Below, in pieces: positions 30,736 to 63,914 of a DNA stretch of 64,000 bases; the first letter of the stretch is position 1, and each line of letters begins with the position of its first letter. The DNA comes from Eubacteriales bacterium (lineage in GTDB: Bacteria; Bacillota; Clostridia; Lachnospirales; Lachnospiraceae), in the NCBI GenBank assembly GCA_044425815.1, contig JAWXVA010000003.1, forward strand, positions 17,429 through 81,428. The letters run 5' to 3'. A program made the translations under genes and the position numbers. The notes below the pieces were generated by a model, which did no database searches, had not been told where the DNA came from, and saw only the letters and a list, made by a program, of their open reading frames with translations.

Positions 30736-30749
30736 ATTTTTATTCTCCT

Positions 30750-31796: not shown

Positions 31797-31839
31797 CGCA
31801 AAAACTCCTTGCTATCCTCTTTCGTGCTATAAAGATTCC

Positions 31840-32478: not shown

Positions 32479-32514
32479 AGCTATCCCCCCCTTGTTGCAA
32501 GAATTTACGTTCCT

Positions 32515-34029: not shown

Positions 34030-34030
34030 T

Positions 34031-36645: not shown

Positions 36646-36664
36646 CTTCTCCTACTCTACTATA

Positions 36665-37027: not shown

Positions 37028-37029
37028 AA

Positions 37030-41368: not shown

Positions 41369-41387
41369 CGTGCTACTCCCTTTCTTC

Positions 41388-42389: not shown

Positions 42390-42411
42390 TATATTTCCTC
42401 ATACACCGTGT

Positions 42412-43850: not shown

Positions 43851-43885
43851 GCTATTTCTCCTTATTTATCATCATTTAGACTACA

Positions 43886-45073
43886 CTAATGTACATCTTC
43901 CTGATGCTTGATTTGTTCTATAAATCGTCTCGCTTCTGGACTCTCAATTAGGATTCCATAACGATTAGAAAAACCTATAAATTCTATTTGCATCTCTTGT
44001 TTCACTCGATATGCTACATGAAACGCAATTTTTTCTTGAATGCGCTTATAAATTTCTCGCTCCAATCCTGTTCTTGAGATAATTTCATGCATATCATCTA
44101 CTGAAACAGTATCTTCAAGCTCTTTCAAATAGTCTAATTTCACTCCACACATCGCACTATGTGCAATCATAATTTCATGCCGCCCATCGGTCACTTTAGA
44201 ATGCGTATTCGTTGTTCCCGCCGCTAATTTTATCATTTTCCCTATGTGACCAACTACTAATACTTTTTTAAATCCACAATATACTGCATGATCCAGAAAT
44301 TCTCCCAGATAATTCGAATATTTCACCGCTTGATTCATATCAAGATTCAGAAATTCTCGTGCGAAATCTATCCCATAATTTCCTGGAGAAGCTAGTAATA
44401 TTTTATTTCTATCTTGTTGGTTCATTTCGATTTTGATTGTTTCAATAAGTGCAGATTCACTCATAGGTTCAACTACACCACTTGTGCCAAGAATCGAAAT
44501 GCCTCCGAGTATTCCCAGTCTCTCGTTGAATGTTTTTTTCGCAATCTTCTCACCTTCTGGAGCCCAAATCATTACACTTAATCCGCCTTTGTACCCTGCA
44601 AGATCCATTTCCTCTAATACGGCATGTTCTATCATTTTTCTAGGAACCTGGTTGATAGCCGCGGTTCCAACCTCACAAGATAATCCTCGTTTAGTGACTT
44701 TACCAATCCCTTCTCCCCCATCTATTATTACAAGGTTCGTATGGAACCCTTGGTTCTGTTCTATTTTACATTTCTCTATCCTTAATTTTTCTACCGTTGC
44801 ATAAATAAGCATCCCGTCTGTGACATCTGGGTCATCTCCACTATATTTTCTCACAGCACAAGTTGCTTTTGTTACTTCTAATTCCCCTTCCAATTTCCCT
44901 TCTAATATTCCAATATCAAAGGTAATTCCAGCGGGAACCTCTAGATTTATTGTTTGCACGAAGGATCCTGTAAAAATAGCTTTAGCAGCCGCTTTCGCCG
45001 CTGCTGTTGCACAACTTCCAGTTGTATAACCAATTTTCAACTTTTTTCCTTGCTTTACAATAAAATCCCTCAT
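43886..45073 (-). CDS. cbiD: Cobalt-precorrin-5B C1 methyltransferase
   Basis: GYTTGSCATAAAKAA, K.SGDDPDVTDG, AAIN.VPR, TFN.RLGI.GGISILGT.G.V.P.S, GH.GK..KLA.G..NTHS. Confidence 0.96.
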   Translation of the reverse strand: MRDFIVKQGKKLKIGYTTGSCATAAAKAAAKAIFTGSFVQTINLEVPAGITFDIGILEGKLEGELEVTKATCAVRKYSGDDPDVTDGMLIYATVEKLRIEKCKIEQNQGFHTNLVIIDGGEGIGKVTKRGLSCEVGTAAINQVPRKMIEHAVLEEMDLAGYKGGLSVMIWAPEGEKIAKKTFNERLGILGGISILGTSGVVEPMSESALIETIKIEMNQQDRNKILLASPGNYGIDFAREFLNLDMNQAVKYSNYLGEFLDHAVYCGFKKVLVVGHIGKMIKLAAGTTNTHSKVTDGRHEIMIAHSAMCGVKLDYLKELEDTVSVDDMHEIISRTGLEREIYKRIQEKIAFHVAYRVKQEMQIEFIGFSNRYGILIESPEARRFIEQIKHQEDVH

Positions 45074-45092
45074 TTGTATTCCTCTTTTTTAA

Positions 45093-45935
45093 TTAACAGC
45101 ATTCTTCTATACACTGTGTTAACTCTTGCATAGACCTTGGTTGTTCAATCGTAGAATCTAAGATTCCTTTTTTTTGTAGTCTCTTGAATATCTGAATCAC
45201 CATTGGTTGTTCTAGATTACACTGCTGTAACAAGGCTACATCCTCAAATACTTCTAGTGGATTTCCTGCTTTTAACAACATCCCCTCATGGAATAATAAT
45301 ACGGTATCTGCCCACTGTAGTGCATAGTCTACATCGTGAATCGCCATCATTACTGTGGTGCCTTGCTCAGATACTTGATTGATTAAACGCTTTACCATCG
45401 TTGTATGTTTCGGATCCAAGGCCGCTGTAGGTTCATCTAAAATCATCACTTCTGGATTCATTACTAAAATATCGGCAATCGATACTTGCTTTTTCTGCCC
45501 AACGCTTAATGCATGGGTTGGTTGCTGTCGAAATGGCGTGATTTCTAATTCTCTTATGACTTGTTCGACTTTCCCTCTTGCTGTCTCCTCGTCTACCCCC
45601 ATATTCAATATCCCAAATGAAATTTCTTGATAAACACTAGCAGAAAACAATTGAATATCTGGATCTTGGAACACAATTCCAATCTTACTTCTTAGATTCA
45701 ACAGTCCTTTCTTCGAATACTCAATCGGCTGTCCATGAAAGTACAGTACGCCACTTGATGGTCGATTAATTCCATTACAACACAAGAAAAATGTGGATTT
45801 TCCAGAACCATTGGCTCCCATCACGGCAACTTTTTCACCCTTTTTGATTTCTAATGTTAACTGGTTCAACGCATTTCTATTATCATTATCATAAGAATAA
45901 CAGAGCTTCTCTGCTTTAATAATTACTTCTTCCAC
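45093..45935 (-). CDS. cbiO: Cobalt ECF transporter ATPase
   Basis: GANGSGKST, VFQDPD.QLF, LSVGQKK, ILDEPTA.LDP. Confidence 0.92.
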   Translation of the reverse strand: MEEVIIKAEKLCYSYDNDNRNALNQLTLEIKKGEKVAVMGANGSGKSTFFLCCNGINRPSSGVLYFHGQPIEYSKKGLLNLRSKIGIVFQDPDIQLFSASVYQEISFGILNMGVDEETARGKVEQVIRELEITPFRQQPTHALSVGQKKQVSIADILVMNPEVMILDEPTAALDPKHTTMVKRLINQVSEQGTTVMMAIHDVDYALQWADTVLLFHEGMLLKAGNPLEVFEDVALLQQCNLEQPMVIQIFKRLQKKGILDSTIEQPRSMQELTQCIEECC

Positions 45936-45937
45936 TA

Positions 45938-46717
45938 TTAGAACACTCCCATCTTCACTATGATTCCAAGACCTATCAGTACTATCTCGAACATAACTAT
46001 CAGCATTGTGACCCTATGATTTGGCGGATTACTCTCATTTAGCACACCTAATTTCCCATTGTATCCACGAGACTCTATCGCATCAAATTGTTGGTTCGAC
46101 TTCTTAATTGCTCGAATAAATAAGATACTCACAAGTTGTGCAAATGAGCGCACGGATGTTTTGTAATCTTTATTTCCTAATCTTGCACGTTGTGCTATCC
46201 CTATGTTTGCTGCAACCTCTAATAAAATAAATATATATCGATACATAAGCATCATTAATTCCACAAATAAGCTAGGAACCTTCCATTGTTGCATCACTTT
46301 GAGTATCTCTGTCATAGGTGTTGTAAATGACACGAAATACAAACAAGTTACACTAGCAAGTGCAGTTAGTATTAATCGCCCTGCAAATCGTAAAACTTCT
46401 ACACTACAAGTGATATACATATTATGCATAGGTATGGCAAAAGCATCCATCGGTGTATGGGCGAAATTAGTAATCATTGCAAGGGTACTAAGAATCAAAA
46501 ACACCAAGGGTATCTTCAAATAATATAGAAAGCGGGCAAAAGACATCCCACTTTTTTCTATAATCAAATAGGTGTTTATAGACAAAACTACTAGTGCCAC
46601 GATACTCAATTGGCTTGCTACACACAAAAAAAGCGTCGTAACTGCATAAAGTATTTTCTGCTCTGTGTTCGAATATCTCAAGTTAGAATTATAGCATATT
46701 TTGTCTATTGATAACAT
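45938..46717 (-). CDS. cbiQ: Cobalt ECF transporter T component
   Basis: RALASV.CLYF..TTP, YRYIF, Q.ARLG, A.ESRGY.G. Confidence 0.9.
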   Translation of the reverse strand: MLSIDKICYNSNLRYSNTEQKILYAVTTLFLCVASQLSIVALVVLSINTYLIIEKSGMSFARFLYYLKIPLVFLILSTLAMITNFAHTPMDAFAIPMHNMYITCSVEVLRFAGRLILTALASVTCLYFVSFTTPMTEILKVMQQWKVPSLFVELMMLMYRYIFILLEVAANIGIAQRARLGNKDYKTSVRSFAQLVSILFIRAIKKSNQQFDAIESRGYNGKLGVLNESNPPNHRVTMLIVMFEIVLIGLGIIVKMGVF

Positions 46718-47055
46718 TATTTTTCTTCCCCGTACTTATCTATCCATTTTTTACGTTCCACGAAACCACCCATAATAAATGCTATGATTCCTACTCCGAT
46801 TCCCGTCTGAATGCAAAACAAAAGACTTTCAATTTCTCCTGGTATTTCTCCATCTAAATATGTTTCCAAAATCGGAGTAAACCATGGTTCATACTCCCCA
46901 TCAATCTCTGCTACCATTTGGCTTCCAGCGTCATCAGATCCACCAAATTCTGCTCCTTTTAACGCTAAGAAAGGAACTGCTGTAATCAAAACGGAAATGA
47001 TTATTAGTAAAATTATCAGTTTTTTATTGCTCTCATATTGTAATTCTTTCTCCAT
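46717..47055 (-). CDS. cbiN: Cobalt transport protein CbiN
   Basis: FGGSDD, Y.PWF.P, GEIESLLF..Q..IG.G.I. Confidence 0.92.
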   Translation of the reverse strand: MEKELQYESNKKLIILLIIISVLITAVPFLALKGAEFGGSDDAGSQMVAEIDGEYEPWFTPILETYLDGEIPGEIESLLFCIQTGIGVGIIAFIMGGFVERKKWIDKYGEEK

Positions 47056-47057
47056 TT

Positions 47058-47816
47058 TTATTCCTCTCCTTTCCAGTATCCAACAAGACGTAGCTCCGGC
47101 TTTGCATAGGTTTCTAACATTAAAATAATAATGACAGTTACTACGCCTTCTAAGATTGCAAGTGGTAATTGTGTTGGTGCAAATACACCGAGGAATTTCA
47201 AAAAGGAAGCTATCACGCCACCTTCTTGTGCAGGATAAGCAAGCGCTAATTGTAAACTAGTTACGCAATATGTAATTAAATCTCCCAAGGCTGCAGCTAA
47301 GAAAATACTTACTTTTTTATTTACCTTCATCTTCTGACATAGTTTGTATACACCATATGTAACAAATGGTCCTACAATTGCCATCGAAAATGTATTCGCA
47401 CCAAGAGTAGTAAGTCCTCCATGCGCCAATAAAATCGCCTGAAATATTAAAACTATAATCCCCAAAATACTAACCGAACTTGCTCCTAATAGAATTGCGC
47501 CAAGCCCTGTTCCAGTCATATGTGAACAACTTCCAGTAACTGAAGGAATCTTTAAGGATGAAATCACAAAAATAAAAGCGCCTGACATGGCAATCAGTGT
47601 CAATACTCTTCGATTCTCATCCACCTTTTTCTGGAGAGATCTAAACCCTATCATCAGCACTGGTATACATAGAATTCCCCATGCGATACAATAATTAATA
47701 GGTAGATACCCTTCCATAATATGCATTGCATTTGTTACTGGCACAACTACTTGACTCATTGCAATTACTCCTAATAAGACAATGACTCTTTGTTTGTTTT
47801 TACTCCACTTCTTCAT
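47058..47816 (-). CDS. cbiM: Cobalt ECF transporter S component with a leader peptide
   Basis: Leader then MHIMEGYLP, SVTGSCSH.TG.GL, AHGG.TTLGAN, FA.TQ.PLA. Confidence 0.96.
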   Translation of the reverse strand: MKKWSKNKQRVIVLLGVIAMSQVVVPVTNAMHIMEGYLPINYCIAWGILCIPVLMIGFRSLQKKVDENRRVLTLIAMSGAFIFVISSLKIPSVTGSCSHMTGTGLGAILLGASSVSILGIIVLIFQAILLAHGGLTTLGANTFSMAIVGPFVTYGVYKLCQKMKVNKKVSIFLAAALGDLITYCVTSLQLALAYPAQEGGVIASFLKFLGVFAPTQLPLAILEGVVTVIIILMLETYAKPELRLVGYWKGEE

Positions 47817-51672: not shown

Positions 51673-53754
51673 ATGCGTACTAAGATTTGGAGCTTTTTAT
51701 TTGTTTTAGAAAAAAATGCGGTGTTCTCTTCTGTGAAGAAGGGATTAATGCTTTCTTTTCTTATCTTTTTATTTGGATCTGTATCAAGATTAGTCTATGC
51801 TCTTCCATATGAAAATGTACATAATTTACTCTATGTCTGGCATAATGGCTTAATAGATAACACATTGACAGCACTTCTGACTGCTACTGATAGTCGACTT
51901 TCGCTTTATCTAGTAATTGCGATTAGCTATTACTATGCTCAAAGTAAAAACCTACAAAATTCCGTACTGCTTTTAATGGCTATTACTGTTTCTGTGATTA
52001 ACTTTATGATGATAGCTAATATAATGGGCGGATCTGATTATATGACACTGCTAGGAATATCTGGAATCGTCTTAGCGATATCCTCAGCTATTATCTCTAC
52101 ATTATCATTCACATTTTTCACAAAACTCATTATGACTCGCCGCCATCTAACAGATCTAGGATCAGATGACAACTTAAAAATGTCCTCGCTGTCTGTGCTC
52201 CCTATGTTATGCACACTAATTCTTAACGCAATCTTTTATTCTTTTATTGCAGATTTTTTAGACTTTACAAGTATCTATGACAATGCGCTAAATCAAATCA
52301 TGAACTTTTTTAACAATTCAAACAATGAATATTTTAGTGGGTTAATCTATTTACTTCTTATAAATTCGCTTTGGTTTTTCGGTATCCATGGTGGCAACGT
52401 ACTACAAACGATTACTGATCAAGTTTTTATTCCTAACGTTATAGACTCTAGTAGTATAATTTCTAAAAGCTTCATTACTACCTTTGCACACATTGGTGGC
52501 TGTGGAACTATGTTCTGTTTAATGTTAGCCGCTATTGTTGTTTCTCGCCGGCGAGGACGCAGTTATAAAGGAATGATTCGTTGGTCTTTCATTCTTGTCC
52601 CTATAAATATTAGCGAATTAGTAGTTTTTGGCTTCTCATTTATCCTGAATCCTATTATGCTAATTCCTCTTATTTTAGTACCATTGGTCTCTCTTTCTAT
52701 CGCGTATTGGGCTACAGTTATTAATTTTATGCCTATTGTCAATAATTCAATTGGTTGGGCGATACCCGTCTTCTTTAGTGGTTATCTCACCACGCACAAT
52801 ATAACAGGCGTTGTTGTGCAACTATTAATTCTTATATGTGGTACTTTGATTTACATTCCTTTTGTAGATCTTCATGAACAATTTCAGGAAGAAAGAGAAT
52901 CTCGTATTTTAGAACTACTGATTAATGATTTTCAACAACATGAAAAAGATGGTCTTGAATTTTCGCTCTTGTCACGTAGTGATGTTGGCGGGCAAATTGC
53001 TAAAGCTGTTGCTAAACGTCTCAGAAGTGATTTAGATAACCACTCAATCCCAATATACTATCAACCTCAATTAAACCAAGACGATAGTGTCATAGGTGCT
53101 GAAGCTTTACTTCGTTGGCGTTATCAAGATAAGGTACTCTACCCACCTTTTGTAATTGCACTAGCTCAAGAAGAAGGGATTCAGGACGCCTTAACATTAG
53201 AAATATTAAATACTGTAGCTTCTTCTATCAGTGAAATCACTAATATCCTCAAACAGGATTTACATTTTTCTATGAATTTCGGAGCATCACAAATTAATAA
53301 TATTGTATTTGTTAACAAAGTAATTGATATTATTCAACAACATGGCGTAAACAATCAAATCTACTTAGAGCTTACGGAAGAAACATCCATAAGCGGATTA
53401 AAGCAGTTGAAATCCAATATTATGCTTCTATCGGAAATGGGAATCGATATGGCTATTGATGACTTTGGTATGGGACAAACTTCTTTGAATTATTTAAAAG
53501 AAAATAACTTTAAATATGTAAAACTAGACGGCGAACTAGTCAAGCATTTGCTAGAACAACCTCGCTGTGCTGAAATCATTACATCTATCATCAATTTAGG
53601 AGAAACCTTAGAATATAAAGTAATCGCTGAATTTGTAGAAACAAAAGAATTAAAAGATAAACTATTAGATCTTGGATGTTTTATTTATCAAGGCTACTAT
53701 TATAGCCCTGCACTTCCAAAAGAAGACTTTATTGTATATTGCTCCAAGTATTAA
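51673..53754 (+). CDS. PTS EIIC (lactose/cellobiose family)-EAL phosphodiesterase fusion
   Basis: LWFFGIHGGNV, GGCG, ILNP, PVFFSG in the TM part; YYQPQ, GAEALLRW, LELTE, IDDFGMG, VKLD, IAEFVE, YQGYYYS in the EAL part. Confidence 0.9.
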   Translation: MRTKIWSFLFVLEKNAVFSSVKKGLMLSFLIFLFGSVSRLVYALPYENVHNLLYVWHNGLIDNTLTALLTATDSRLSLYLVIAISYYYAQSKNLQNSVLLLMAITVSVINFMMIANIMGGSDYMTLLGISGIVLAISSAIISTLSFTFFTKLIMTRRHLTDLGSDDNLKMSSLSVLPMLCTLILNAIFYSFIADFLDFTSIYDNALNQIMNFFNNSNNEYFSGLIYLLLINSLWFFGIHGGNVLQTITDQVFIPNVIDSSSIISKSFITTFAHIGGCGTMFCLMLAAIVVSRRRGRSYKGMIRWSFILVPINISELVVFGFSFILNPIMLIPLILVPLVSLSIAYWATVINFMPIVNNSIGWAIPVFFSGYLTTHNITGVVVQLLILICGTLIYIPFVDLHEQFQEERESRILELLINDFQQHEKDGLEFSLLSRSDVGGQIAKAVAKRLRSDLDNHSIPIYYQPQLNQDDSVIGAEALLRWRYQDKVLYPPFVIALAQEEGIQDALTLEILNTVASSISEITNILKQDLHFSMNFGASQINNIVFVNKVIDIIQQHGVNNQIYLELTEETSISGLKQLKSNIMLLSEMGIDMAIDDFGMGQTSLNYLKENNFKYVKLDGELVKHLLEQPRCAEIITSIINLGETLEYKVIAEFVETKELKDKLLDLGCFIYQGYYYSPALPKEDFIVYCSKY

Positions 53755-53765
53755 CTATCTCTAAC

Positions 53766-53809
53766 AAATAGAATCATGATACAATTTCATGATTCTATTT
53801 CTTTTTTTT
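53766..53809. terminator. Perfect 14-bp hairpin between the convergent EAL and nth genes
   Basis: aaatagaatcatga-tacaatt-tcatgattctattt followed by a T run; contains the nth stop. Confidence 0.8.
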
Positions 53810-54439
53810 CTTATATTGCTCAAATTGCTCTCGCTTACATTCCTTTGCAAATACACACTCCTCACAATTTGGACGTAAAGCTTTACAATGGTAACGACCA
53901 AAAAAGATGAAACTATGGTGGGCTTTATTCCAGCGATTCCTATCAAGTTTTCGCTTTAATTTACGCTCTACATCTTCCACTTTATCATCGAACTTTGCTA
54001 GTCCCAAACGTTTCGACACACGTTCCACATGCGTATCCACTGCAAATGCTGGTATATCATAGGCTACGGACAGAACCACATTAGCAGTCTTTCTCCCCAC
54101 GCCAGCTAGGCTAGTTAATTCTTTCATGGTCGCTGGCACTTGACTATTATATTCGAGAACCAAGGTGGTAGATAAAGATTTAATCATTTTAGATTTATTG
54201 CGATATAGTCCTATCTTCGTAAGATAACTTTCTATTTCTGTGATATCACCTTCCATTAAATCTTCTGGTGTTGGAAAACGCTGAAATAACGCTGGTGTCA
54301 CCTTGTTCACCGCTTCATCCGTAGTTTGTGCACTGAGTACTACTGCTATAATTAATTCATATGGATTCCTATGGTGCAATGCACATTCTGCATCTGGAAA
54401 CATTTTGTCCATTTCATCTAAGATATAATTAGCATCCAT
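53795..54439 (-). CDS. nth: Endonuclease III
   Basis: LSAQTTD..VN, L.GVGRKTANVV, AVDTHV.RV.KRLG, GRYHCKA.RP.C..C....C Fe-S motif. Confidence 0.96.
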   Translation of the reverse strand: MDANYILDEMDKMFPDAECALHHRNPYELIIAVVLSAQTTDEAVNKVTPALFQRFPTPEDLMEGDITEIESYLTKIGLYRNKSKMIKSLSTTLVLEYNSQVPATMKELTSLAGVGRKTANVVLSVAYDIPAFAVDTHVERVSKRLGLAKFDDKVEDVERKLKRKLDRNRWNKAHHSFIFFGRYHCKALRPNCEECVFAKECKREQFEQYKKKKK

Positions 54440-54565
54440 TTCTACTCCCCTTTTCATCATATAATATTATCAACCCTATTGTACCATAGTATATATATTA
54501 GTAAATAAATATTAAGGTATTTTCTTTTCACTAATCATCATACTAGCAGTTACCGGCATAATAAT

Positions 54566-54609
54566 AGGAAAGGCTAAATAGATATTTTCTCATCTATTTA
54601 GCCTTTCCT
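54566..54609 (-). terminator. Terminator of the iron uptake operon
   Basis: Perfect 18-bp stem aggaaaggctaaatagat / atctatttagcctttcct. Confidence 0.8.
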
Positions 54610-54635
54610 TTATTTTAAAAAACTTAATTTTTTTC

Positions 54636-55697
54636 TTAGTTTTCTAAGTAATCGTATCTATTTGTTACTTGTGTTCCATCAAGTACGAAATTACTAACAT
54701 CTGTTACTCTCATGTACGCTGCCATAGAACCATTTGAACGATTCCATACGTTATGCGCAAATTCAAATACATTTCCGTTTTGAACTGCTGTTAAATTTTG
54801 CCAGATTGGAGATGCTTCGTACTCTGCGAAATCTTCCCAGCTCTCTACGTTAATGAATAAGTAATCTGGATCAAATTCTAATAAGTTCTCAAGTGCTAAG
54901 TATCCACTCTCTTCTGGGAAACCTTCTGGAAGTGATAATCCAAGGTTCACATATACGTGTGGATGTGATGTTGCAAGGCTGTATTGAACCCCTTTTGTAG
55001 AAATTTGTGTTACAATTGCTGTCTTTCCTTCTAAGTCAATTCCTGCTTCTTCGATTAATGTGTTGTATTCTTCTACTGTTGCATCATACGCAGCGATATT
55101 TGCCTCTGCTTCTTCTACTCTATCAATCAATAATGCTAATGTTTCATGGATTTGCTTCCAGTCTTTGTATCCTTCTTCATCTGTGCTTAATGCTGATGGT
55201 AGGAAATATGTTGGAGCAATTGCATTTAACTTATCTGCATATTCAATATTTGACTCACTTGTAATAATATAATCTACGTTAAGCTCTAATAATTGTTCGA
55301 AATCAATTCCATCATCTGTTGCATTAATTGGAATAATATTTTCTAAAACACTTCTATCTGGATAGAATCTTCCATATCCATCTAAATAAGAAACTATTTG
55401 TGCATTTGTAGCATCTTCTGCTGGTTCATTTGTAATTGGTGAAGCTACTGGTGTTACACCCATGTGTAGACAATGATCAAGGTATCCCCAATCAAGAATC
55501 GCGAAATTACCGAATTCTTCTGGAAGTTCTTTCTCTCCATCTGCCATTGTTACAGTTGTTCCTGAAGCTTCTGTTGAAGCAGAATCTGCTTCTGCTACTA
55601 CTGTTGTTTCTGTTGCAACTTCTTCTGTTTTACCACAAGCTGCGAATGCACTTAATGAAAGTGCTGCTACTAATACTGCTGAAATAATTCTTTTCAT
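54636..55697 (-). CDS. Fe-siderophore/heme-type ABC substrate-binding lipoprotein (FhuD/FatB-like)
   Basis: Lipobox SAFAAC, L.MGVTPVA, IDFEQLLEL..DYII, PIWQNL.AVQNGNV. ATG 55697. Confidence 0.85.
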   Translation of the reverse strand: MKRIISAVLVAALSLSAFAACGKTEEVATETTVVAEADSASTEASGTTVTMADGEKELPEEFGNFAILDWGYLDHCLHMGVTPVASPITNEPAEDATNAQIVSYLDGYGRFYPDRSVLENIIPINATDDGIDFEQLLELNVDYIITSESNIEYADKLNAIAPTYFLPSALSTDEEGYKDWKQIHETLALLIDRVEEAEANIAAYDATVEEYNTLIEEAGIDLEGKTAIVTQISTKGVQYSLATSHPHVYVNLGLSLPEGFPEESGYLALENLLEFDPDYLFINVESWEDFAEYEASPIWQNLTAVQNGNVFEFAHNVWNRSNGSMAAYMRVTDVSNFVLDGTQVTNRYDYLEN

Positions 55698-55769
55698 ATT
55701 ATGTTTTCCTTTTCTTTCTTGATTTTTTTTATTATAATTATGGATTTCCATAGATTATACAAGTTATAT

Positions 55770-56786
55770 TTACCTATCTTGTGCATACAATAAATACAAT
55801 AGATACGGTGCGCCTAGTATTGAAATCGTAATTCCTACTGGTACATAGAGGGCTGCGTTAATATCATTCACAAGAATCTTCGCTACGATATCCGCTAACA
55901 TCACTAATCCTGCGCCAAATAGCATCGAAATCGGTAAGAATAATTTGAAGTTCGACCCTACTAGCCTCTTAGCAATATGTGGTGCAATCAAGCCTACAAA
56001 ACCAATGGTTCCTGCCACATACACTGCTACTGAACTTAGAATAATCGTAATATACAATAATTTTCTTCGTTCTTTCCTCAAATCAATTCCTAGTCCTACA
56101 GACATCTCATCACCTAGATTCAAGATGTTTAGTGTGAATGTTTTATAGAAAATGTAGATAAAACAAGGAACCGCTCCTGCTATTCCAATAAATATCATTT
56201 TCCATGTTGCATAGGTTAGATTCCCTGCTTGTGATAAAGTAAGCATGAGATAAGCATCCGCACTTAATTTCATAGTGAGAAGCAACGATACTGCTCCAAT
56301 ACAAGAGTTCACTGCAATACCATTTAGAATTAACTTTGTTGGAGATAAATTATGTTTCATAGCCAATCCATATACGAGACTGAACACAATAAATCCGCCA
56401 ATAATAGCTGCAATTGGATATGGTACCAACATTGGGAATCCTTTGTCAAATAGGTAAACTACTATCAGGATTCCAAAGCTCGCCCCTGATGATACACCTA
56501 TCATATTTGGTGTTGCTAACGGATTTCTAGTTACACCTTGCATCACTGCTCCTGCAGCTGCTAGGCAAACCCCTACGAAGATAGCAACCACTGTTCGTGG
56601 AATACGAAGCTGCCATATGATGAAATTTTCTTGATCTGTTCCTTGTCCGAATAACGTTGCAATAATTCTTTCGATTGGTAGCGGTGTATATCCTATATTA
56701 ACAGACCAGATCAGTCCTACGATGAGAAGCACGATTAATGTAGGAAATAGTATCCTGGCTCTCTGCTTATTTGATAAATGTTTCAT
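55770..56786 (-). CDS. FecCD family iron-chelate ABC permease
   Basis: LRIPR, QGVTRNPLA.P..IGVSSGA, GTIGFVGLIAPH.A, GAPY. Confidence 0.93.
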   Translation of the reverse strand: MKHLSNKQRARILFPTLIVLLIVGLIWSVNIGYTPLPIERIIATLFGQGTDQENFIIWQLRIPRTVVAIFVGVCLAAAGAVMQGVTRNPLATPNMIGVSSGASFGILIVVYLFDKGFPMLVPYPIAAIIGGFIVFSLVYGLAMKHNLSPTKLILNGIAVNSCIGAVSLLLTMKLSADAYLMLTLSQAGNLTYATWKMIFIGIAGAVPCFIYIFYKTFTLNILNLGDEMSVGLGIDLRKERRKLLYITIILSSVAVYVAGTIGFVGLIAPHIAKRLVGSNFKLFLPISMLFGAGLVMLADIVAKILVNDINAALYVPVGITISILGAPYLLYLLYAQDR

Positions 56787-57793
56787 TAGAATACTCCTTT
56801 CGCTTTTTTCGAATTAATAAGATAAAGGAATATTGGAATACCAATAATTGAAGTAATCAATCCGACTGGTGTCTCCACTGGCATATTGACCAATCTACTT
56901 ACCACATCTGCAATCACAAGTAACATACTTCCAAATAGTGCAGAATACGGAATTACTTTTCTATAATCTTCTCCTGTGCTCATCTTCACAATATTTGGAA
57001 TTATCAATCCGATAAATCCAATATTTCCGACAACACTTACCGTAGAAGCTGCGATAAATACAACGCTAATTACACCTAACAATTTTGTAAGCTTTACATT
57101 CTGTCCTAGTGAAATCGCCGTTTCATCTCCCATCCCAAGTACTGTCAATCTTCCTGAAATACAAAATGCAATCACGACTCCTACAACTCCTAGCATTAGA
57201 ACCCCTATTCCAATCCATCGTATTCCTAATAACCCTGAATTGTTCCATAGATAAATCCCTGCTCCTTGCTCTGTATAAGACCATAATGTAATCGCTGTAC
57301 TAATTGCTGAAAACAATGTTCCAAGTGCTGTTCCTGCGAGTAAGAGCTTAATTCCCGACTCATTTCCCTTTATTCTTGAAGATAAGCTAAAAATAATGAT
57401 AGTGGATATAGCTGCACCAATCATTGAAAACGTAAGATTCGTAACATAAGTATTCGCTCCTAAGTTGATGGAATATGCAATAGTTAAACCTAAATTTGCT
57501 CCACTGCTAACCCCTACCACATCTGGACTTGCAAGATAGTTTCTTGTAATCCCTTGCATCACTGCACCACCTACTGCTAGAAATCCTCCCACTAATAACG
57601 CTCCAATGATTCTCGGAAACTTAATGGTTCTATTTACATAATGAATTAAATTCTCTGGATCATAATTGAAAATCGAATCCTTTACTTCCTGCAATGTTGA
57701 CGCAGGCGATAAGTACGTCAATGTAGTATACGCACAAACTAGAAATATTCCCAAAAACAGAATAACCCACGCCCTTAACGAAATTTTCTTCAT
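56786..57793 (-). CDS. FecCD family iron-chelate ABC permease
   Basis: FPR..GA, QGITRN.LASP...GVSSGA, GNIGFIGLIIP, P.ETPVG. Confidence 0.93.
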   Translation of the reverse strand: MKKISLRAWVILFLGIFLVCAYTTLTYLSPASTLQEVKDSIFNYDPENLIHYVNRTIKFPRIIGALLVGGFLAVGGAVMQGITRNYLASPDVVGVSSGANLGLTIAYSINLGANTYVTNLTFSMIGAAISTIIIFSLSSRIKGNESGIKLLLAGTALGTLFSAISTAITLWSYTEQGAGIYLWNNSGLLGIRWIGIGVLMLGVVGVVIAFCISGRLTVLGMGDETAISLGQNVKLTKLLGVISVVFIAASTVSVVGNIGFIGLIIPNIVKMSTGEDYRKVIPYSALFGSMLLVIADVVSRLVNMPVETPVGLITSIIGIPIFLYLINSKKAKGVF

Positions 57794-57798
57794 TTATC

Positions 57799-58596
57799 TT
57801 ATCCCTCCTTCTGTAGCAATTCATAAGAAATGCACACAGGAATATCTGTATCTGGTAGGTTCATAAGATGAGCATCTATGTTAAATACTTTCTTTAGTGC
57901 TTCTTTAGTCATTACTTGAGATGGAGCGCCTTGCTCCACGATAGTCCCTTTCTTTAGCATTACGATTTCATCTGAAAATCGACTTGCTTGGTTAATATCA
58001 TGAAGAACCATAATTACTGTGATTTTCTTCTCTTTATTTAATGCCTGTACTAATTGAAGAACTTCTAACTGGTATGCCATATCTAAATATGTAGTTGGTT
58101 CATCTAATAAAATCACCTCTGTCTGCTGCGCTAATACCATGGCTATCCAAACACGTTGTCTCTGTCCACCTGATAAAGAGTTAATGTTTCTATCTTTGAA
58201 TTCTTTCAAATCTGTTTGTTCTAGTGCCCATTCCACAATTTCGTGATCTTCTTTGTTTAATCGACCATTACTTTTCTTGTGCGGAAATCTTCCATATTCC
58301 ACAATTTCAGAAACCGTAAGTCCATTTGGTGCTTTCGGACTCTGCGGAAGCATTCCTATAATTTGTGCTATTTTCTTTGTATTTGTTTTATGTACATTGA
58401 ACTCTTCCACCATAATCTCACCTTGTTTCGGCTTCAAAATACGTCCAATTGATTTTAATAGCGTTGATTTTCCACAACCATTTTCACCAATAATCGTTGT
58501 GACTGTCCCTTTTTTGATTGTTAAGGATAAATCATCAATAATAATATTGTTTTCATATCCTACCTTAATCCCATTTATATTGATTATACTTTTCAA
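57799..58596 (-). CDS. Iron-chelate ABC transporter ATPase (FhuC-like)
   Basis: GENGCGKSTLL, LPQS, GRFPH, LSGGQRQRVWIAM.LAQ, LDEPTTYLD. Confidence 0.95.
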   Translation of the reverse strand: MKSIININGIKVGYENNIIIDDLSLTIKKGTVTTIIGENGCGKSTLLKSIGRILKPKQGEIMVEEFNVHKTNTKKIAQIIGMLPQSPKAPNGLTVSEIVEYGRFPHKKSNGRLNKEDHEIVEWALEQTDLKEFKDRNINSLSGGQRQRVWIAMVLAQQTEVILLDEPTTYLDMAYQLEVLQLVQALNKEKKITVIMVLHDINQASRFSDEIVMLKKGTIVEQGAPSQVMTKEALKKVFNIDAHLMNLPDTDIPVCISYELLQKEG

Positions 58597-58608
58597 GTTC
58601 CCTGCTCC

Positions 58609-59418
58609 TTATATTCCAGACTTGCCAAATGACAATGCTGTTAAATTATTGTTTTCTTTGAAGTATGCGTTGTTTGTCGCCTTTAATTTTTCAAAAATCT
58701 CATCCTTCTTCTCATCTACAATATGAATTGTTGTTTCAAAATGATTGTCTTTCCCATCATAGATTTTGCAGATTCCACCATTCTTAATGTGTCCCATTTT
58801 ATTGGAATCACTTTTTGCTAAACAGTAGTAAGTTCCATCTGCGATGAACACACTAAAGATTACTTCTCTTTCTTCTTTCGCATCACCGTTTGGATATGTC
58901 ATAAGTACTTGACGGCTATTTTCAAATCGCTCTTTTCCATTTGCTGTGAACTTTGCAAATGTTAGATTTAATTCATCATCGATCTCATACACTTGAGCAC
59001 CACTAAGCGTTACTAGTGCTTGATTCATATGAAGCTTTAAAAACTTCGCTCCATGTGATCGCATTTTCCCTATCATTGGATAACTCTTTTCTAATTCATC
59101 TAAGACTGTCGCTTCTGCCGAAAGCAAATGTGAAGTTAATTGTCCGTGGAATTTCTTAGCACCTTTTCCCACTCCATCTTGAATAAAGGCTGCGAACTTA
59201 GTTCCTTCCCCTAACACCTTCACAAATTGCGACATAGGTGGAACGACTGCAATATGTTGTCCTTGACAATAAAAATAATCAATCGCCTCAACTGTTGGGT
59301 ATTCTGTATCGTTATTCATTGCAACGTATAACAATCTTTGATTTTGGAAAAACTCTTCTACCAATGGTTTCGCCTCTTCAATAGATGGTCTAGTTTTAAA
59401 AATTTCTTTATGATTCAT
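58609..59418 (-). CDS. Uncharacterised protein with two probable PNPOx-like split-barrel domains
   Basis: Two repeats of the split-barrel pattern (LYVA...YP....Y...G..; REVIFSV...GTYYCL....S.KM..I..G). Confidence 0.55.
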   Translation of the reverse strand: MNHKEIFKTRPSIEEAKPLVEEFFQNQRLLYVAMNNDTEYPTVEAIDYFYCQGQHIAVVPPMSQFVKVLGEGTKFAAFIQDGVGKGAKKFHGQLTSHLLSAEATVLDELEKSYPMIGKMRSHGAKFLKLHMNQALVTLSGAQVYEIDDELNLTFAKFTANGKERFENSRQVLMTYPNGDAKEEREVIFSVFIADGTYYCLAKSDSNKMGHIKNGGICKIYDGKDNHFETTIHIVDEKKDEIFEKLKATNNAYFKENNNLTALSFGKSGI

Positions 59419-59457
59419 TTTTTGCTCCTTTTATTTAAAAGTTTAGTTTAAAACTCC

Positions 59458-59546
59458 AGTTAGCTTAAGCTAACTCATTCCCTTTAAAAAAGTGCGAAAA
59501 GTTTTTTTGATTTCACTTTATCACACGCAGTTAGTGTTTTCTAACC
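59458..59546. promoter_or_regulatory. Twin operators AGTTAG-N6-CTAAC
   Basis: AGTTAGCTTAAGCTAACT (59458-59475, perfect palindrome) and AGTTAGTGTTTTCTAACC (59529-59546). Confidence 0.7.
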
Positions 59547-59553
59547 AAGTGCA

Positions 59554-59582
59554 ATTGTATCAAGTGTTAAATCATTTGTCAA
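59554..59582 (-). promoter_or_regulatory. Near-consensus sigmaA promoter of the iron uptake operon
   Basis: TTGACA(59582-59577)-17 bp-TACAAT(59559-59554) with TGn extension. Confidence 0.85.
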
Positions 59583-59658
59583 CTCTTTTCCGCACTTTTA
59601 TTTTTCCATTTTCAGGTTGTATTTAACTTATTTCCATTTTATTATCAGATTATTGATG

Positions 59659-60180
59659 TTATTTGTCAGATATATTCCTTTTATTTTCATACAATTTATC
59701 CATAAGATTATGAAGGTTCTCCATCTCTTCTTCTGTAAATCCTGCAAATAATTCCTCCGCATATTTCTGTGTTTGCGTCTCTATTTCATTTGCAATTTCC
59801 ACTCCTTTTTCAGTAAGAGAAATGATATTTTCATTATTGATTTCTCCGTTTCCTTTTTGGATTAATTCTTTTTGCTCTAACTTTTTAATTATTTCAGATA
59901 CTGCTTGTGCCGTAACATTAGTCATATTTGCGATATTTCGCTGGTTCAAACTACCTTCACGAAGTAGCACACATAATAATTTTCTTGCAGACGGTGGGAT
60001 TCGTATTCCATCATCTGGTTTTTGCTTACAATGGCATTCTCCTTCTCCACGAGCTCTCTCCCCATGCCCTTTGTGCCTCTTACCATGTGGACCGTGTCTT
60101 CTTTCCCCTTCCGGTCTGATGTTTTCTAGAACCTCGAACATTCTCATCATTTCGTCTTGCTTACTTCTCACTTCGCTCAT
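59659..60180 (-). CDS. MarR family transcriptional regulator with a His/Arg-rich N-terminal insert
   Basis: LNQR.IA....VT.QAVSE.IKKLE.K.LI, ISLTEKG. ATG 60180. Confidence 0.88.
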   Translation of the reverse strand: MSEVRSKQDEMMRMFEVLENIRPEGERRHGPHGKRHKGHGERARGEGECHCKQKPDDGIRIPPSARKLLCVLLREGSLNQRNIANMTNVTAQAVSEIIKKLEQKELIQKGNGEINNENIISLTEKGVEIANEIETQTQKYAEELFAGFTEEEMENLHNLMDKLYENKRNISDK

Positions 60181-60222
60181 AACATCTTCCCCTTTTCTAT
60201 GTGACATTCGTTTTATAGTAAC

Positions 60223-62061
60223 CTACATCAACTTCTCCATACCTGTGTATAAGCTATAATATTTTCCTTGCAGAGATAACAATTCTTCATGACTTCCCAT
60301 TTCTATCATTTCACCTGCTTCTAGCACGATAATTTTATCAGAATTTCTAACGGTTGATAATCGATGTGCTATTACAAATGTTGTTCGCTCCCGCATTAAT
60401 CGGTTCAACGCTTCCTCAATATGTCTTTCGGTTCTGGTGTCTACTGAACTTGTCGCTTCATCTAATACGAGAATCGGCGCCTTAGAAATCGCTGCTCTCG
60501 CTATATTTAAAAGCTGCCTCTGCCCACCGCTTAGATTCGATCCGTCTCCTGTTAGGATCGTTTGATAGCCATCTTCTAAGCGCCTAATAAACTTATCCGC
60601 ATTAGCCACCTTGCACGCCTCTATCACTTCTTCATCTGTTGCATCTAATCTCCCATAACGAACATTCTCCATAATGGTACCTGTAAATAAATGAGTATCC
60701 TGTAGCACCATTGCAATATTCTCTCGCAAAAATGCTTTATCTAGTTCCTTAATATTATAACCATCAATCATAATGGCACCTTCATGAATATCATAAAAAC
60801 GATTCAATAAATTCGTAATCGTCGTTTTTCCTGCGCCTGTAGAACCTACGAAGGCTATTTTCTCAGACTTCTTTGCTGACAATGAAATATTTTTCAAGAT
60901 TTTTCTATCTCTATGATAGCCGAAATCTACTTGCTGAAATACAATATTCCCTTCTATTTTCTCTAGAACAGCTCCGCCATCCTGTTCTGGTTCATGATTC
61001 ATCACTTCAAATACTCTTTCCGCTCCAGCTAATGCAGAGAATACTGCATTTATCTGTGAAAAGATTTCATTTATCGGTCTCGAAAAGCTCTTAGAGTATC
61101 CCAAGAAAATAGTAAATCCGCCAATATCAAATGACCCTAATATGCATAGTAATCCACCTGCACAAGCTGTAACGATATAACCCATTTGAGCAACCGTTCC
61201 CATTATTGGTCCCATAATTCCACTTAAGAATTGTGCTTGAAAAGATTTATCACGATAACTTTTATTTAATTCTCTAAATTGATGAATCGTCTTTTCTTCA
61301 TGGTTAAATACTTTAATTACTTTTTGGCCTGTTACTTGCTCTTCGATATATCCATTTAACTTTCCAATACTTGCTTGCTGACCTTTATAAAACAGCATCG
61401 ATTTTTTAGAAATGTATTTCGTTAAAAATGAAAATAAAGGTGTTATCGACAATGTTATAATTGCCAGCATCCAATTGGTATACACCATAATCACAACAGT
61501 AGTACATAACGTAAATATACTAGATACCAAGCTAACCGCTGTACTTGATAGCATCTGATTCACAATATCCACATCATTGGTAAAGCGACTCATCAAATCC
61601 CCATTTTTATTATTATCAAAGAAGCGAACTGGCAGTTTTTGCATAGTTTCGAGCAAATCTTCTCTTAATTTAGCTAGTGAATTCTGTGCGATTTCCAACA
61701 TAATTCGAGACTGAATATAATTACTAACTACTGCCACCAAATATACCACTACCATAATTCCAAGATATCTTAGAATCGTTTGAACCTCTGTTCCTTCTAT
61801 TAGTCCGTTAATGATAGGACGAATCATATAGGATGCTAATATGGTAAATGTACTACTAATTACTACGAAGATCATAGCCAATAATAATAACAGCTTATGT
61901 CTACCAAGGTATGTTAATAATCGTTTGATTGTTTCTTTCGTATTTTTCGGTTTCACTTTCTCTCGAAATCTTCCGCCTGGACCTCCTGGACCTCCTGGCC
62001 CGCCTTTTGGCCCCATTCCTATAGGTGGTGTCACTCTCGAGAAATCTTTCTTTTCACTCAT
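60223..62061 (-). CDS. ABC exporter half-transporter with the consensus ATP site (TM288-like)
   Basis: G.LMSRFTND, GSTGAGKTT, LSGGQRQ, LDEATSSVD, IAHRLST. Confidence 0.93.
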   Translation of the reverse strand: MSEKKDFSRVTPPIGMGPKGGPGGPGGPGGRFREKVKPKNTKETIKRLLTYLGRHKLLLLLAMIFVVISSTFTILASYMIRPIINGLIEGTEVQTILRYLGIMVVVYLVAVVSNYIQSRIMLEIAQNSLAKLREDLLETMQKLPVRFFDNNKNGDLMSRFTNDVDIVNQMLSSTAVSLVSSIFTLCTTVVIMVYTNWMLAIITLSITPLFSFLTKYISKKSMLFYKGQQASIGKLNGYIEEQVTGQKVIKVFNHEEKTIHQFRELNKSYRDKSFQAQFLSGIMGPIMGTVAQMGYIVTACAGGLLCILGSFDIGGFTIFLGYSKSFSRPINEIFSQINAVFSALAGAERVFEVMNHEPEQDGGAVLEKIEGNIVFQQVDFGYHRDRKILKNISLSAKKSEKIAFVGSTGAGKTTITNLLNRFYDIHEGAIMIDGYNIKELDKAFLRENIAMVLQDTHLFTGTIMENVRYGRLDATDEEVIEACKVANADKFIRRLEDGYQTILTGDGSNLSGGQRQLLNIARAAISKAPILVLDEATSSVDTRTERHIEEALNRLMRERTTFVIAHRLSTVRNSDKIIVLEAGEMIEMGSHEELLSLQGKYYSLYTGMEKLM

Positions 62062-62064
62062 CTT

Positions 62065-63825
62065 CTACACCTCTCCTACTTCTAGTACTCTATTATCGCT
62101 CTCTCCATTGTCCATCTGAGAGTTATAAATTTCTCTATATACTGAAGATACTTCTAGCAACTCTGCATGCGTTCCCATATCTACAATCTGACCTTCATCC
62201 ATAACAATAATATTATCGCAATTAATAACAGAAGAAATTCTCTGTGCAATGATAATCTTGGTCATAGCTTGTAAATCTTCTGTAAGATGTCTTGTGATTT
62301 TTCGTTCTGTTGCTGTATCTACTGCACTGGTGGAATCATCTAGAATTAATACCTTTGTCTTCTTTAACAACGCTCTTGCTATGCAAAGTCTTTGTTTTTG
62401 TCCACCTGATAAGTTCAATCCACGTTGATTCAAATCCGTGTCAAATCCCTCTGGCATTTTTTCGATAAATTCTCCTGCTGCTGCATAATCCGCTATCCGA
62501 ACTAATTCTTCTTCTGTGGCAAATTCATTTCCCCAAAGAAGATTATCGCGAATCGTTCCTGAGAACAATAAATTGTTCTGTAGTACCACTGCCACTCCAT
62601 CACGTAAATTTTTCAACGAGTACTTCTTTACATTCACTCCATCTACAAAGATTTCTCCGCAATTCACATCATATAACCTAGAAATCAAATGAACTAATGT
62701 GGTTTTTCCACATCCAGTAGAACCTACAATTCCAATGGATTGTCCCGATTTAATATCTAAATTGATATTTGCAAGTACCTGCTCTTCAGAATTCGCATAA
62801 TATTTAAAGCTGACATTTTCAAATCGAATATCCCCAGTAGTTACCTTTTTATCTGCGTTTGTTTCCGCAGAATCTGAAATATCCACATTTGCATTTAATA
62901 CTTGTGTAATACGTCTGCCACTTACACGCGATCTTGCGCTTTGCAAAAATACATTTGCAATCATATTTACTGACATCAGTATCTGAGTTAAATACGTAAT
63001 AAATGCGCTCATGTCTCCAATTTGAAGTTCGCCCTTGCCTAGCGCCTTACTTCCAAACCACAGAATCGCAATGGTCGCCATATTGACTGCAAATGTCATA
63101 ATAGGTCTCTGCAATATATTGATACGATATGCTGATAAGCTTGTATCTTTCAAATCATGGTTTGCCTTCTCGAATCTGTTCTTCTCAAATTCTTCTCGTG
63201 TGAATGCCTTGATTACACGAATGTTAATCAACCCTTCTTGGATTGTAGTGTTAAGTGTATCGATTTTCTCTTGCAGTTTCGCAAATCTTGGATATGAGAC
63301 ATTTAAAACCAAAAATACGATTACTCCTAATACGGGAGTTAATACAAAGAAAATAATCGACATATCTGGACTAATGCTATATGCCATAATCATGGCTCCT
63401 ATAAGCATTCCAGGTGCTCGAAATACCATTCTAAGGGACATCACAATAATCTGCCCTACCTGTGTTACATCATTAGTCAATCTCGTCACCAACGAACCTG
63501 TGCTGAATTTGTCAATATTATCAAACGAAAAACTCTGTATCTTTACAAAGAGTTCTTCGCGTAAATCATGACAGAAATTCACCGATGCTTTCGTTGCTGA
63601 ATAAGAAGAACCAATCCCTGCCGCTACTGCAACTAATGCAAATGTTAACATTTGAATTGATATAAGGATAATCCCTCGACTATCTCCACCTTCTACTGCT
63701 AGATTTACAATCTCTGCAGAAAGGGATGGGATTCTAACATCACAGTATACCTCAATTAACATTAGTAACGGCGCCATAATAAAATACGCTATATATGGCT
63801 TTGCGTGTTTGTAGTATAAATTCAT
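62065..63825 (-). CDS. ABC exporter half-transporter with degenerate Walker B/switch (TM287-like)
   Basis: SL.TRLTNDV, GSTGCGKTT, LSGGQKQR, LDDSTSAVD (D for E), IAQRISS (Q for H). ATG 63825 follows GAAGGAG. Confidence 0.93.
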   Translation of the reverse strand: MNLYYKHAKPYIAYFIMAPLLMLIEVYCDVRIPSLSAEIVNLAVEGGDSRGIILISIQMLTFALVAVAAGIGSSYSATKASVNFCHDLREELFVKIQSFSFDNIDKFSTGSLVTRLTNDVTQVGQIIVMSLRMVFRAPGMLIGAMIMAYSISPDMSIIFFVLTPVLGVIVFLVLNVSYPRFAKLQEKIDTLNTTIQEGLINIRVIKAFTREEFEKNRFEKANHDLKDTSLSAYRINILQRPIMTFAVNMATIAILWFGSKALGKGELQIGDMSAFITYLTQILMSVNMIANVFLQSARSRVSGRRITQVLNANVDISDSAETNADKKVTTGDIRFENVSFKYYANSEEQVLANINLDIKSGQSIGIVGSTGCGKTTLVHLISRLYDVNCGEIFVDGVNVKKYSLKNLRDGVAVVLQNNLLFSGTIRDNLLWGNEFATEEELVRIADYAAAGEFIEKMPEGFDTDLNQRGLNLSGGQKQRLCIARALLKKTKVLILDDSTSAVDTATERKITRHLTEDLQAMTKIIIAQRISSVINCDNIIVMDEGQIVDMGTHAELLEVSSVYREIYNSQMDNGESDNRVLEVGEV

Positions 63826-63857
63826 CAGTTCTCCTTCGGTGTCAATATTCTTTCCAC

Positions 63858-63914
63858 TATCAAGTGGTTGATACCAATTTAACACCTGCCCAGTTCGGTG
63901 TCAAGTACTTGATT
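63858..63914 (-). promoter_or_regulatory. sigmaA promoter with two palindromic, probably MarR, operators
   Basis: TTGACA(63904-63899)-17 bp-TAAATT with TGn extension; TATCAAGTGGTTGATA (63858-63873) and TGTCAAGTACTTGATT (63899-63914). Confidence 0.7.

Follow-up and report, generated by a model that had tools for sequence, protein, structure and literature searches.

In a 64,000-nucleotide stretch of a Eubacteriales (Lachnospiraceae) genome (contig JAWXVA010000003.1, assembly GCA_044425815.1; this whole stretch is called the window below), the minus strand from 59418 to 54636 carries five closely packed open reading frames (ORFs), the first of which encodes a 269-residue protein, here called SB269, and the others an ATP-binding cassette (ABC) importer. 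Both halves of SB269 are predicted to be split beta-barrels and, as judged by profile comparison, the protein appears to be no duplicate but a fusion of two different split-barrel lineages: its N-half is a divergent HutZ/HugZ-type barrel, descended from heme-utilisation proteins, and its C-half is a remote relative of another, PNPOx_N lineage. Our preferred reading, held tentatively and at somewhat less than an even chance, is that SB269 is a cytoplasmic handler of the cargo of the importer, a single-chain hetero-pseudo-dimer with one asymmetric cleft, binding and perhaps reducing the chelate. The genome from which the window comes is 2.96 Mb in size, and habitat runs containing window sequence are labelled fish gut metagenome.

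The preliminary description had set a tandem split-barrel gene ahead of an ATPase, two permeases and a binding protein; the ORF listing, together with Pfam and NCBIfam searches, finds these genes in that order and exactly where they had been placed:

59418..58609, minus strand: SB269, 269 aa; predicted divergent HutZ/HugZ-like split barrel at residues ~6-155, conserved linker at ~154-169, predicted PNPOx_N-type split barrel at ~164-266.
58596..57799, minus strand: ABC importer ATPase, FecE-like, 265 aa (ABC_tran 1.4e-35; best NCBIfam match FecE, 6e-95, 317 bits, below the cut-off of 375).
57793..56786, minus strand: FecCD-family permease A, 335 aa (FecCD 7.9e-76; best NCBIfam matches FhuB and FecC, below cut-offs).
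56786..55770, minus strand: FecCD-family permease B, 338 aa (FecCD 9.5e-83; FhuB-, BtuC- and FecD-like in NCBIfam, below cut-offs).
55751..54636, minus strand: substrate-binding lipoprotein of siderophore/ferric-citrate type, 371 aa (Peripla_BP_2 1.9e-10; best NCBIfam match a FecB-like, ferric-dicitrate binding-protein subfamily, 3.5e-16, 59 bits).

The ATPase gene starts 12 nucleotides past the SB269 stop codon, and the linker between the two barrels carries the conserved stretch FAKF..NGKERFENSR.

That two split barrels lie in one chain had likewise been proposed beforehand, with the predicted fold as the check, and the AlphaFold2 models, searched with Foldseek and with VIA, bear this out. 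The full-length model, built from an alignment of 32 homologues, has a mean predicted local distance difference test (pLDDT) of 88.2 and a predicted template modelling score (pTM) of 0.74. Its residues 6-155 align in VIA to ChuZ (Z 14.4), Pden_1323 (14.2), At3g03890/HOZ (13.6), PA 2arz (13.5) and HutZ (11.8), the next match listed after 2arz being at Z 12.5; Foldseek (E 4e-7 against the PDB) and VIA, which is independent of it, agree on heme-related split barrels. Residues 164-266 of the same model superpose on the split barrel of Ddn (Z 10.7, root-mean-square deviation 2.7 Å, 98 residues). When the C-half was modelled alone, from a 35-sequence alignment out of related loci (pLDDT 87.4, pTM 0.80), split-barrel proteins made up 49 of the 50 matches listed by VIA, with 97-103 of the 114 residues aligned, and they were headed by TA1372 (Z 11.1), Atu2129 (11.0), Rv2991 (10.9) and Ddn (10.8); the best Foldseek E value was 4.9e-5. 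Each half, tested for the six-stranded split-barrel fold, falls in the fold superfamily of split barrels that bind flavin mononucleotide (FMN), the PNPOx-like one. No solved chain of the PDB spans both halves according to Foldseek, the best query-normalised TM-score being 0.44, and FeR/Flavin_Reduct proteins are absent from the 50 matches listed for each model, a listing that does not exclude them. Feature scores in the ESM Atlas, of at most 0.86, are a lead only; the structure matches there are to PNPOx_N/HugZ/CREG-type clusters and to radical-SAM fusions.

The single-chain pseudo-dimer of the preliminary description stands in so far as the two barrels share a chain, but not as a duplicated pseudo-homodimer, as the halves point to two different lineages. 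Recent internal tandem duplication is rejected because the N-half, aligned to the C-half with hhalign, reaches a probability of only 0.1 %. In 300 genomes of the order to which the window belongs, searched with a 20-member SB269 profile, full-length matches were confined to the genome of the window and two others, with none in the 31 other genomes of its own family, and 12 genomes contained single-domain ORFs of 153-229 aa that match the N-half alone (E 1e-24 to 1e-7). Nine such single-domain relatives, from eight genomes (L055-L063), were taken for comparison. All nine match PNPOx_N in Pfam, five of them CREG_beta-barrel in addition, and the HutZ and HugZ models of NCBIfam are matched by all eight that were scanned, with E values from 5e-22 to 2e-38 and scores short of the equivalog cut-offs. 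Compared by hhalign with these nine HutZ-like proteins, the N-half of SB269 aligns over 144 columns with a probability of 98.6 % and E 1.3e-15 (97.8 % and E 8e-13 in a local rerun), which amounts to sequence homology with the HugZ/HutZ family. The window protein itself matches no HutZ/HugZ model of NCBIfam, and HutZ 3tgv reached just E 0.12 in the PDB profile search with SB269.

The C-half is of another kind, its hhalign probability against the HutZ-like proteins being 0.5 %. It aligns instead with PNPOx_N proteins of 138-171 aa from three genomes of the order (92.8 %, E 3.9e-7, 63 columns, 25 % identity), the match being centred on a motif, YY-x-[LI]-T..SNK..HI, for which general stress protein 26 (PDB 3ec6) also gives an alignment, though not a significant one (E 0.34). 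The C-half profile detects no close stand-alone relative in the 300 genomes of the order and gives three weak matches only, which are these PNPOx_N proteins; PDB sequence searches with the whole-protein and C-half profiles returned nothing significant.

Conservation points to the second barrel. In the alignment of the 32 close homologues 23 positions are invariant, in the N-half as well as in the C-half. A set of 20 members of greater diversity leaves only Y175, Y197, L200, K207, D221, F227 and F253, plus the start Met, unchanged throughout, and because all of these, the Met aside, lie in the C-half, the C-barrel is likely the functional centre. The N-half has kept little of the heme cleft from which it would derive. 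According to the available text of the HutZ study (PMC3472187), Ser42, Tyr43, Pro45, His63 and Arg92 line the docked heme, and it takes the H63A/R92A double mutation to abolish the Soret band, either His63 or Arg92 being sufficient. In the hhalign register, the equivalents of Ser42, Tyr43, Pro45 and His63 are each found in 0 of 35 SB269 family members, and the window protein agrees with the HutZ-like relatives at none of their 19 invariant columns. Of the five residues, Arg92 alone has an equivalent that persists, as R in 24 and as K in 6 of the 35. The C-terminal axial His (HugZ His245, HutZ His170) has no counterpart either: the stretch from the final N-barrel strand to the C-barrel contains no conserved His, and position 167 can be N or H. 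SB269 would then be a HutZ relative that fails two defining features of its family.

These residues bear on an explanation that we consider unlikely, in which SB269 retains a HutZ-like job as a non-oxygenase, cytoplasmic chaperone or store of heme or another iron tetrapyrrole, perhaps with Tyr ligation, and in which the importer carries tetrapyrrole. Such a role would agree with the best structural neighbours of the N-half, heme proteins from ChuZ down to 2arz, with its profile homology to HutZ-like proteins, with the invariant Y175 and Y197, and with an arginine that would, going by the same HutZ mutants, suffice for a Soret band. It is nevertheless hard to reconcile with the loss of the Ser-Tyr-x-Pro and His63 equivalents, of the HutZ-like invariant columns and of any conserved His after the N-barrel, and the genome has no ChuW/HutW protein above cut-off that could be an anaerobic heme-degradation partner, its best match scoring 186.6 bits against a cut-off of 400. 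The binding proteins of the linked importers, considered next, also speak against it.

An ATPase, FecCD permeases and a Peripla_BP_2 protein in one operon identify a Type II (FecCD/BtuCD-type) iron-chelate ABC importer. The best PDB sequence matches of the window binding protein are YfmC (Fe-citrate, 8.8e-8), FhuD, FeuA, HtsA, YfiY, YclQ and CeuE, with no heme or B12 binding protein among the matches at E <= 0.01 and no IsdE match in NCBIfam at E <= 0.1. The transporter proteins miss every NCBIfam equivalog cut-off, and the cargo is therefore left unassigned. A B12 importer is improbable because the genome has its own cbi cluster and no cobalamin riboswitch was found: an Rfam scan of 53000..61000 for riboswitches and other RNA elements, at E <= 1, gave just one chance miRNA match. 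The preliminary description was also right that the operon holds no classical siderophore reductase or heme oxygenase, since a Pfam scan at E <= 0.1 detects no SIP/ViuB, FhuF or heme-oxygenase family among its proteins.

The link between SB269 and this type of importer recurs in other loci. In 38 loci, compared by tblastn of the window's proteins and, for the rest, by Pfam, the homologue lies directly before ATPase, FecCD, FecCD and binding protein in 20 (three of them truncated at contig ends), and after FecCD, FecCD, ATPase and binding protein in two, both Anaerolineales. A FecCD-type importer is thus beside the homologue in 22 of the 38, in two gene orders and two phyla. Eleven loci have no FecCD neighbour despite kilobases of flank, among them L021, in which the homologue is divergent to a ZnuA operon, and five have too little flank for the neighbourhood to be judged. 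An exporter-type ABC pair, mostly accompanied by a MarR gene, is linked to the homologue in 15 of the 38. Four binding proteins from SB269-linked operons were scanned, and all are siderophore-like: besides that of the window, these are an SstD-like protein in L037 (158.7 bits), a FecB/FepB/SstD-like one in L008 and one with weak SstD/FecB matches in L014.

The single-domain HutZ-like relatives keep other company. Five of the nine are found in FecCD-type operons, of which they form the last gene in four; the exception, L058, has another FecCD-type operon directly after it. L058, L061 and L063 share the order IsdE-like binding protein (211-249 bits), FecCD, ATPase, HutZ-like protein. Judging therefore from the types of binding protein, siderophore-like in one case and IsdE-like in the other, the fused SB269 appears to accompany siderophore-type importers and its single-domain relatives IsdE-type heme importers, a contrast that weighs against a tetrapyrrole cargo for the SB269-linked operons. 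Among the other genes at these loci are a ChuW/HutW-like radical-SAM gene in L063 (251.7 bits, below the cut-off of 400), a Flavodoxin_3 gene in L056, a NifD/K-like Oxidored_nitro pair in L062, nitrogenase-like and thus far unusual company for a FecCD importer, and one such gene before the contig end in L060.

The operon appears to be under metal control, and the following elements surround it:

59582..59554, minus strand: strong sigma-70-like promoter, TTGACA, 17 nucleotides, TG-TACAAT, with 11 of 12 consensus matches.
59545..59530, minus strand: operator 1, GTTAGAAAACACTAAC (GTTAG-N6-CTAAC), right after the -10 box and about at the predicted transcription start.
59474..59459, minus strand: operator 2, GTTAGCTTAAGCTAAC, in the 5' leader.
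54609..54566, minus strand: intrinsic-terminator-like hairpin with a 19-pair stem, 3' of the binding-protein gene, seen in the sequence.
60207..59659, minus strand: MarR-family gene (MarR/HTH_24) closing the upstream exporter operon, its product extended at the N-terminus by a His/Cys/Lys-rich segment.
60223..63885, minus strand: two ABC_membrane plus ABC_tran half-transporters (Pfam; heterodimeric exporter fold), upstream of the SB269 operon.

The palindrome GTTAG-N6-CTAAC occurs at 11 exact sites in the genome, against about 3.3 expected from base composition, while the reversed genome has 3, ten palindromes of the same composition have 0-7 and other spacings 0-3. Ten of the 11 sites are intergenic (P 1.6e-7, with a crude gene call). 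In this genome the regulon lies on contigs C104, C150, C152, C204, C21, C208 and C213. The operator is found before an operon of DUF2325, ZnuA, ATPase and permease, whose binding protein has a long His/Asp-rich loop; before two COG0523 GTPases; before zupT (384.7 bits against an equivalog cut-off of 252) and on a second contig with a zupT-like layout, in which the ORF is truncated at the contig end; before feoAB, as one exact and two one-mismatch sites; before a flavodoxin gene, as two sites; and at a divergent region with DUF3793, an unknown gene and Vut_1. The predicted regulon mixes typical iron-starvation and zinc-starvation genes.

The same operator recurs in related loci. Within 200 nucleotides upstream of the homologue it is exact in 17 of 34 loci and has one mismatch in 6 more, stand-alone copies included (exact in L019, L020 and L035, with one mismatch in L026 and L031); L007, whose flank is too short to judge the neighbourhood, has it exact as well. 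In five loci (L012, L014, L015, L022 and L029) a second exact operator lies between the homologue and the ATPase gene. In L015 the exporter operon carries the same operator; in the window genome, no operator with up to two mismatches was found within 500 nucleotides upstream of the exporter operon. The Peptostreptococcaceae locus L010 has no GTTAG palindrome and contains instead, at about 5100..5185 upstream of the homologue, a GATAATCGTTATC element that we take to resemble a Fur box. Around the promoter of the window, a 14-15-nucleotide inverted repeat (59488..59502 and 59586..59599) is also present, with its downstream arm in the 5' leader and followed by a T run. The exporter-fold pair could, by conjecture, export or import a metallophore.

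One consequence is that the iron named as the cargo metal in the preliminary description is not secured, because the shared operator also stands at typical zinc-uptake genes. It could be imagined that the operon imports a zinc or mixed-metal metallophore, which SB269 would bind or unload, and that the regulon responds to zinc via a MarR/AdcR-like sensor. Besides the operator before the znu-like operon, zupT and the two COG0523 genes, this would fit the Fur-family complement of the genome, which consists of a single, PerR/Fur-like gene (one MntR/DtxR-like gene is present in the genome as well), and the divergent operator region that the homologue of L021 shares with the ZnuA operon. It would also fit the adjacent MarR, which occurs as a single copy in the genome, has a weak match to the AdcR family (5.5e-8, below cut-off) and whose relatives next to SB269 homologues carry similar N-terminal extensions; this MarR may be the regulator, as a metal sensor. 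We nonetheless judge a zinc importer quite unlikely, as feoAB and flavodoxin, typical iron-starvation genes, carry the same operator, the nearest relatives of the binding protein bind ferric complexes and no zinc-binding motif is conserved in SB269.

The regulon raises a further alternative, namely that SB269 serves the starvation regulon as a flavoprotein, metal-sparing or of general redox function, much as flavodoxin does, its adjacency to the importer reflecting co-regulation only. The stand-alone copies, several of them still with the operator, the separate exact operators of gene and transporter in five loci, the presence of flavodoxin in the regulon and the PNPOx_N type of the C-half would all be expected if this were so. 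That FecCD adjacency has nevertheless been kept across two gene orders and two phyla, and that the HutZ-like ancestry likewise points to uptake operons, makes it, in our opinion, an improbable account.

In the reading that we prefer, SB269 would be, inside the cell, an accessory to a metal-starvation-induced, siderophore-type FecCD ABC importer. Its two barrels would sit against each other as the subunits do in a split-barrel dimer, and such packing would create one asymmetric cleft, not two equal ones, able to take over the imported ferric (or related metal) chelate. The C-barrel, in which nearly all invariant residues of the family lie (Y175, Y197, S205, K207, D221, F227 and F253), would supply the site for binding or for a cofactor, and the degenerate barrel of HutZ origin would form the opposite wall of the cleft; the C-barrel may hold a flavin-type cofactor, in which case the chelate could be reduced and the metal released without oxygen. 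The N-barrel would have come from HutZ/HugZ-type heme-utilisation proteins and would have lost most of its heme-cleft residues. That the protein releases iron from, or chaperones, the imported chelate had been suggested from the outset. This suggestion is strengthened because the FecCD linkage extends over two phyla, because the HutZ-like relatives of the N-half are encoded at the end of heme-uptake operons and because the promoter carries a metal-starvation operator, but it loses strength from the absence of most of the HutZ heme-cleft residues.

Several observations weigh against this reading of SB269. The loci without a FecCD neighbour imply that its function is not strictly dependent on this transporter. 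In structure, the N-half comes nearest to heme proteins and not to reductases. The operator at the ZnuA-like gene, zupT and the COG0523 GTPases means that the cargo metal may differ from iron, and for a zinc chelate reduction would not be needed. SB269 itself has no Pfam or NCBIfam match, the single sub-threshold one being DUF4468 at E 0.055, and Pfam thresholds are unmet among the 32 members, with Pyrid_ox_like in 5 of them (best E 0.015) and PNPOx_N in one (E 0.034). The single hint of a flavin is the [TA]-x3-S-x-K motif of the C-half, also present in 3ec6, which in PNPOx-like proteins binds the FMN phosphate. The one figure that speaks for the packing of the barrels against each other is the pTM of the full-length model; this packing, the ligand, the cofactor and the reduction are what we infer.

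Among known systems, SB269 is close to HutZ, HugZ, ChuZ and HOZ. It shares with them the fold of its N-half, profile homology, the FecCD-type neighbour and, in most members, the Arg92 equivalent. A 2026 survey of about 16,400 HugZ/HutZ sequences describes, in its available text, three architectures, Core-only, N-fusion and C-extension (PMC13715372), the C-extension being the DUF2470/DRI domain (PMC13715372; PMC11602992, likewise in the parts available). SB269 differs in that the HutZ-like barrel is joined, within one chain, to another split barrel, a combination not among these three architectures as described there, in the missing Ser-Tyr-x-Pro, His63 and C-terminal axial His, and in its linked binding proteins, which are siderophore-like and not IsdE-like. 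As far as the accessible text of a 2024 study goes, HOZ/HugZ-like genes can lie next to FecCD and siderophore genes, and some are fused to FepB/FhuD-like domains (PMC11602992). Our literature searches found no report of a tandem or pseudo-dimeric split barrel, or of a HutZ-like barrel fused to a second one, though the supplements of PMC13715372 and PMC11602992 might list such proteins.

The C-half resembles PNPOx_N and general-stress-protein-26-like FMN barrels and the FDOR enzymes (Ddn, Rv2991, TA1372) in its fold (Z 10.8-11.1), in its remote profile homology and in the [TA]-x3-S-x-K motif, but it stays below Pfam thresholds and is fused to a HutZ-like barrel instead of forming a homodimer. 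MSMEG_4975 (4ybn) and Anf3 (6rk0), which hold flavin and heme, match the N- and C-halves at Z 9.6 and 10.8 and at Z 8.0 and 10.0, respectively, and set a precedent for a split-barrel dimer that holds ligands of two kinds; they are, however, homodimers of one barrel type, and no sequence relation of SB269 to them was detected. With SIP/ViuB/YqjH, FhuF and the split-barrel FeR proteins SB269 has in common its proposed role and its position beside a siderophore importer, but it matches none of these families in Pfam, and cytoplasmic ferric-siderophore reductases have folds that differ from that of SB269.

The SB269 family is small and dispersed. A word-indexed search returned 32 clusters and a profile search 53 among 5.8 billion; when 1.84 billion representatives were searched exhaustively with phmmer, 23 matched, one of them spuriously. 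The spurious match, a seemingly long form of 2017 aa, is an ankyrin-repeat protein, and the short forms are pieces of 60-135 aa. The clusters of the profile search are about 255-285 aa long, except for one partial, and they are unnamed or called 'hypothetical protein', none having a precomputed Pfam domain. The named GTDB-representative records are metagenome-assembled genomes of Lachnospiraceae, Oscillospiraceae, Eubacteriales, Peptostreptococcaceae, Erysipelotrichaceae, Holdemania and Epulopiscium, and two Anaerolineales records match at 27-29 % identity. Because this distribution is patchy over families that share one habitat, it suggests horizontal spread.

Metal release from imported chelates is poorly known in strict anaerobes, and neither classical reductases (SIP, FhuF) nor heme oxygenases that depend on oxygen occur here; SB269 is a small, defined and expressible candidate for this step. 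It also outlines an evolutionary route by which a homodimeric heme-utilisation barrel could have joined a foreign barrel, a symmetric two-site dimer becoming an asymmetric one-chain protein, with the partner transporter changing from heme-type to siderophore-type along with the fusion. The shared operator would be a tractable entry to a combined iron/zinc starvation regulon in uncultured gut symbionts, including Epulopiscium relatives. In its boldest form, which we regard as doubtful, the proposal would be that SB269 founds a new class of cytoplasmic proteins that process metallophores in strict anaerobes, a single-chain heterodimer of a degenerate HutZ barrel and a flavin-type barrel whose one asymmetric site strips the metal reductively from a siderophore-like chelate after import, within a joint Fe/Zn regulon that acts through GTTAG-N6-CTAAC and is perhaps governed by the MarR, and that this module has spread horizontally among unrelated fish-gut Clostridia.

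Sequence from RNA libraries matches the operon. Two metatranscriptome runs, both from one study, contain contigs identical in sequence to stretches of the SB269 and ATPase genes, and one of these contigs, 58522..58665, crosses the junction between the two genes. Another, from run X3, stops at 59535, close to where transcription is predicted to start, which is a weak hint only, as these contigs are assembled and show presence, not transcript ends or levels; the parts of the operon that they leave uncovered carry no weight.

Elsewhere in the window, the minus strand carries a complete anaerobic cobalamin biosynthesis cluster (cbi/cob genes, hemC, hemD-cobA) with a CbiMNQO cobalt transporter at 26481..47816, an Rnf complex operon at 7527..12483 and a Na+-translocating decarboxylase-like cluster (carboxyltransferase, OAD gamma, biotin carrier, OAD beta, PYC_OADA) at 19222..24452. 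On the plus strand, 51673..53754 encodes an unusual protein of 693 aa, in which a PTS EIIC-like membrane domain is joined to a C-terminal EAL (c-di-GMP phosphodiesterase) domain.

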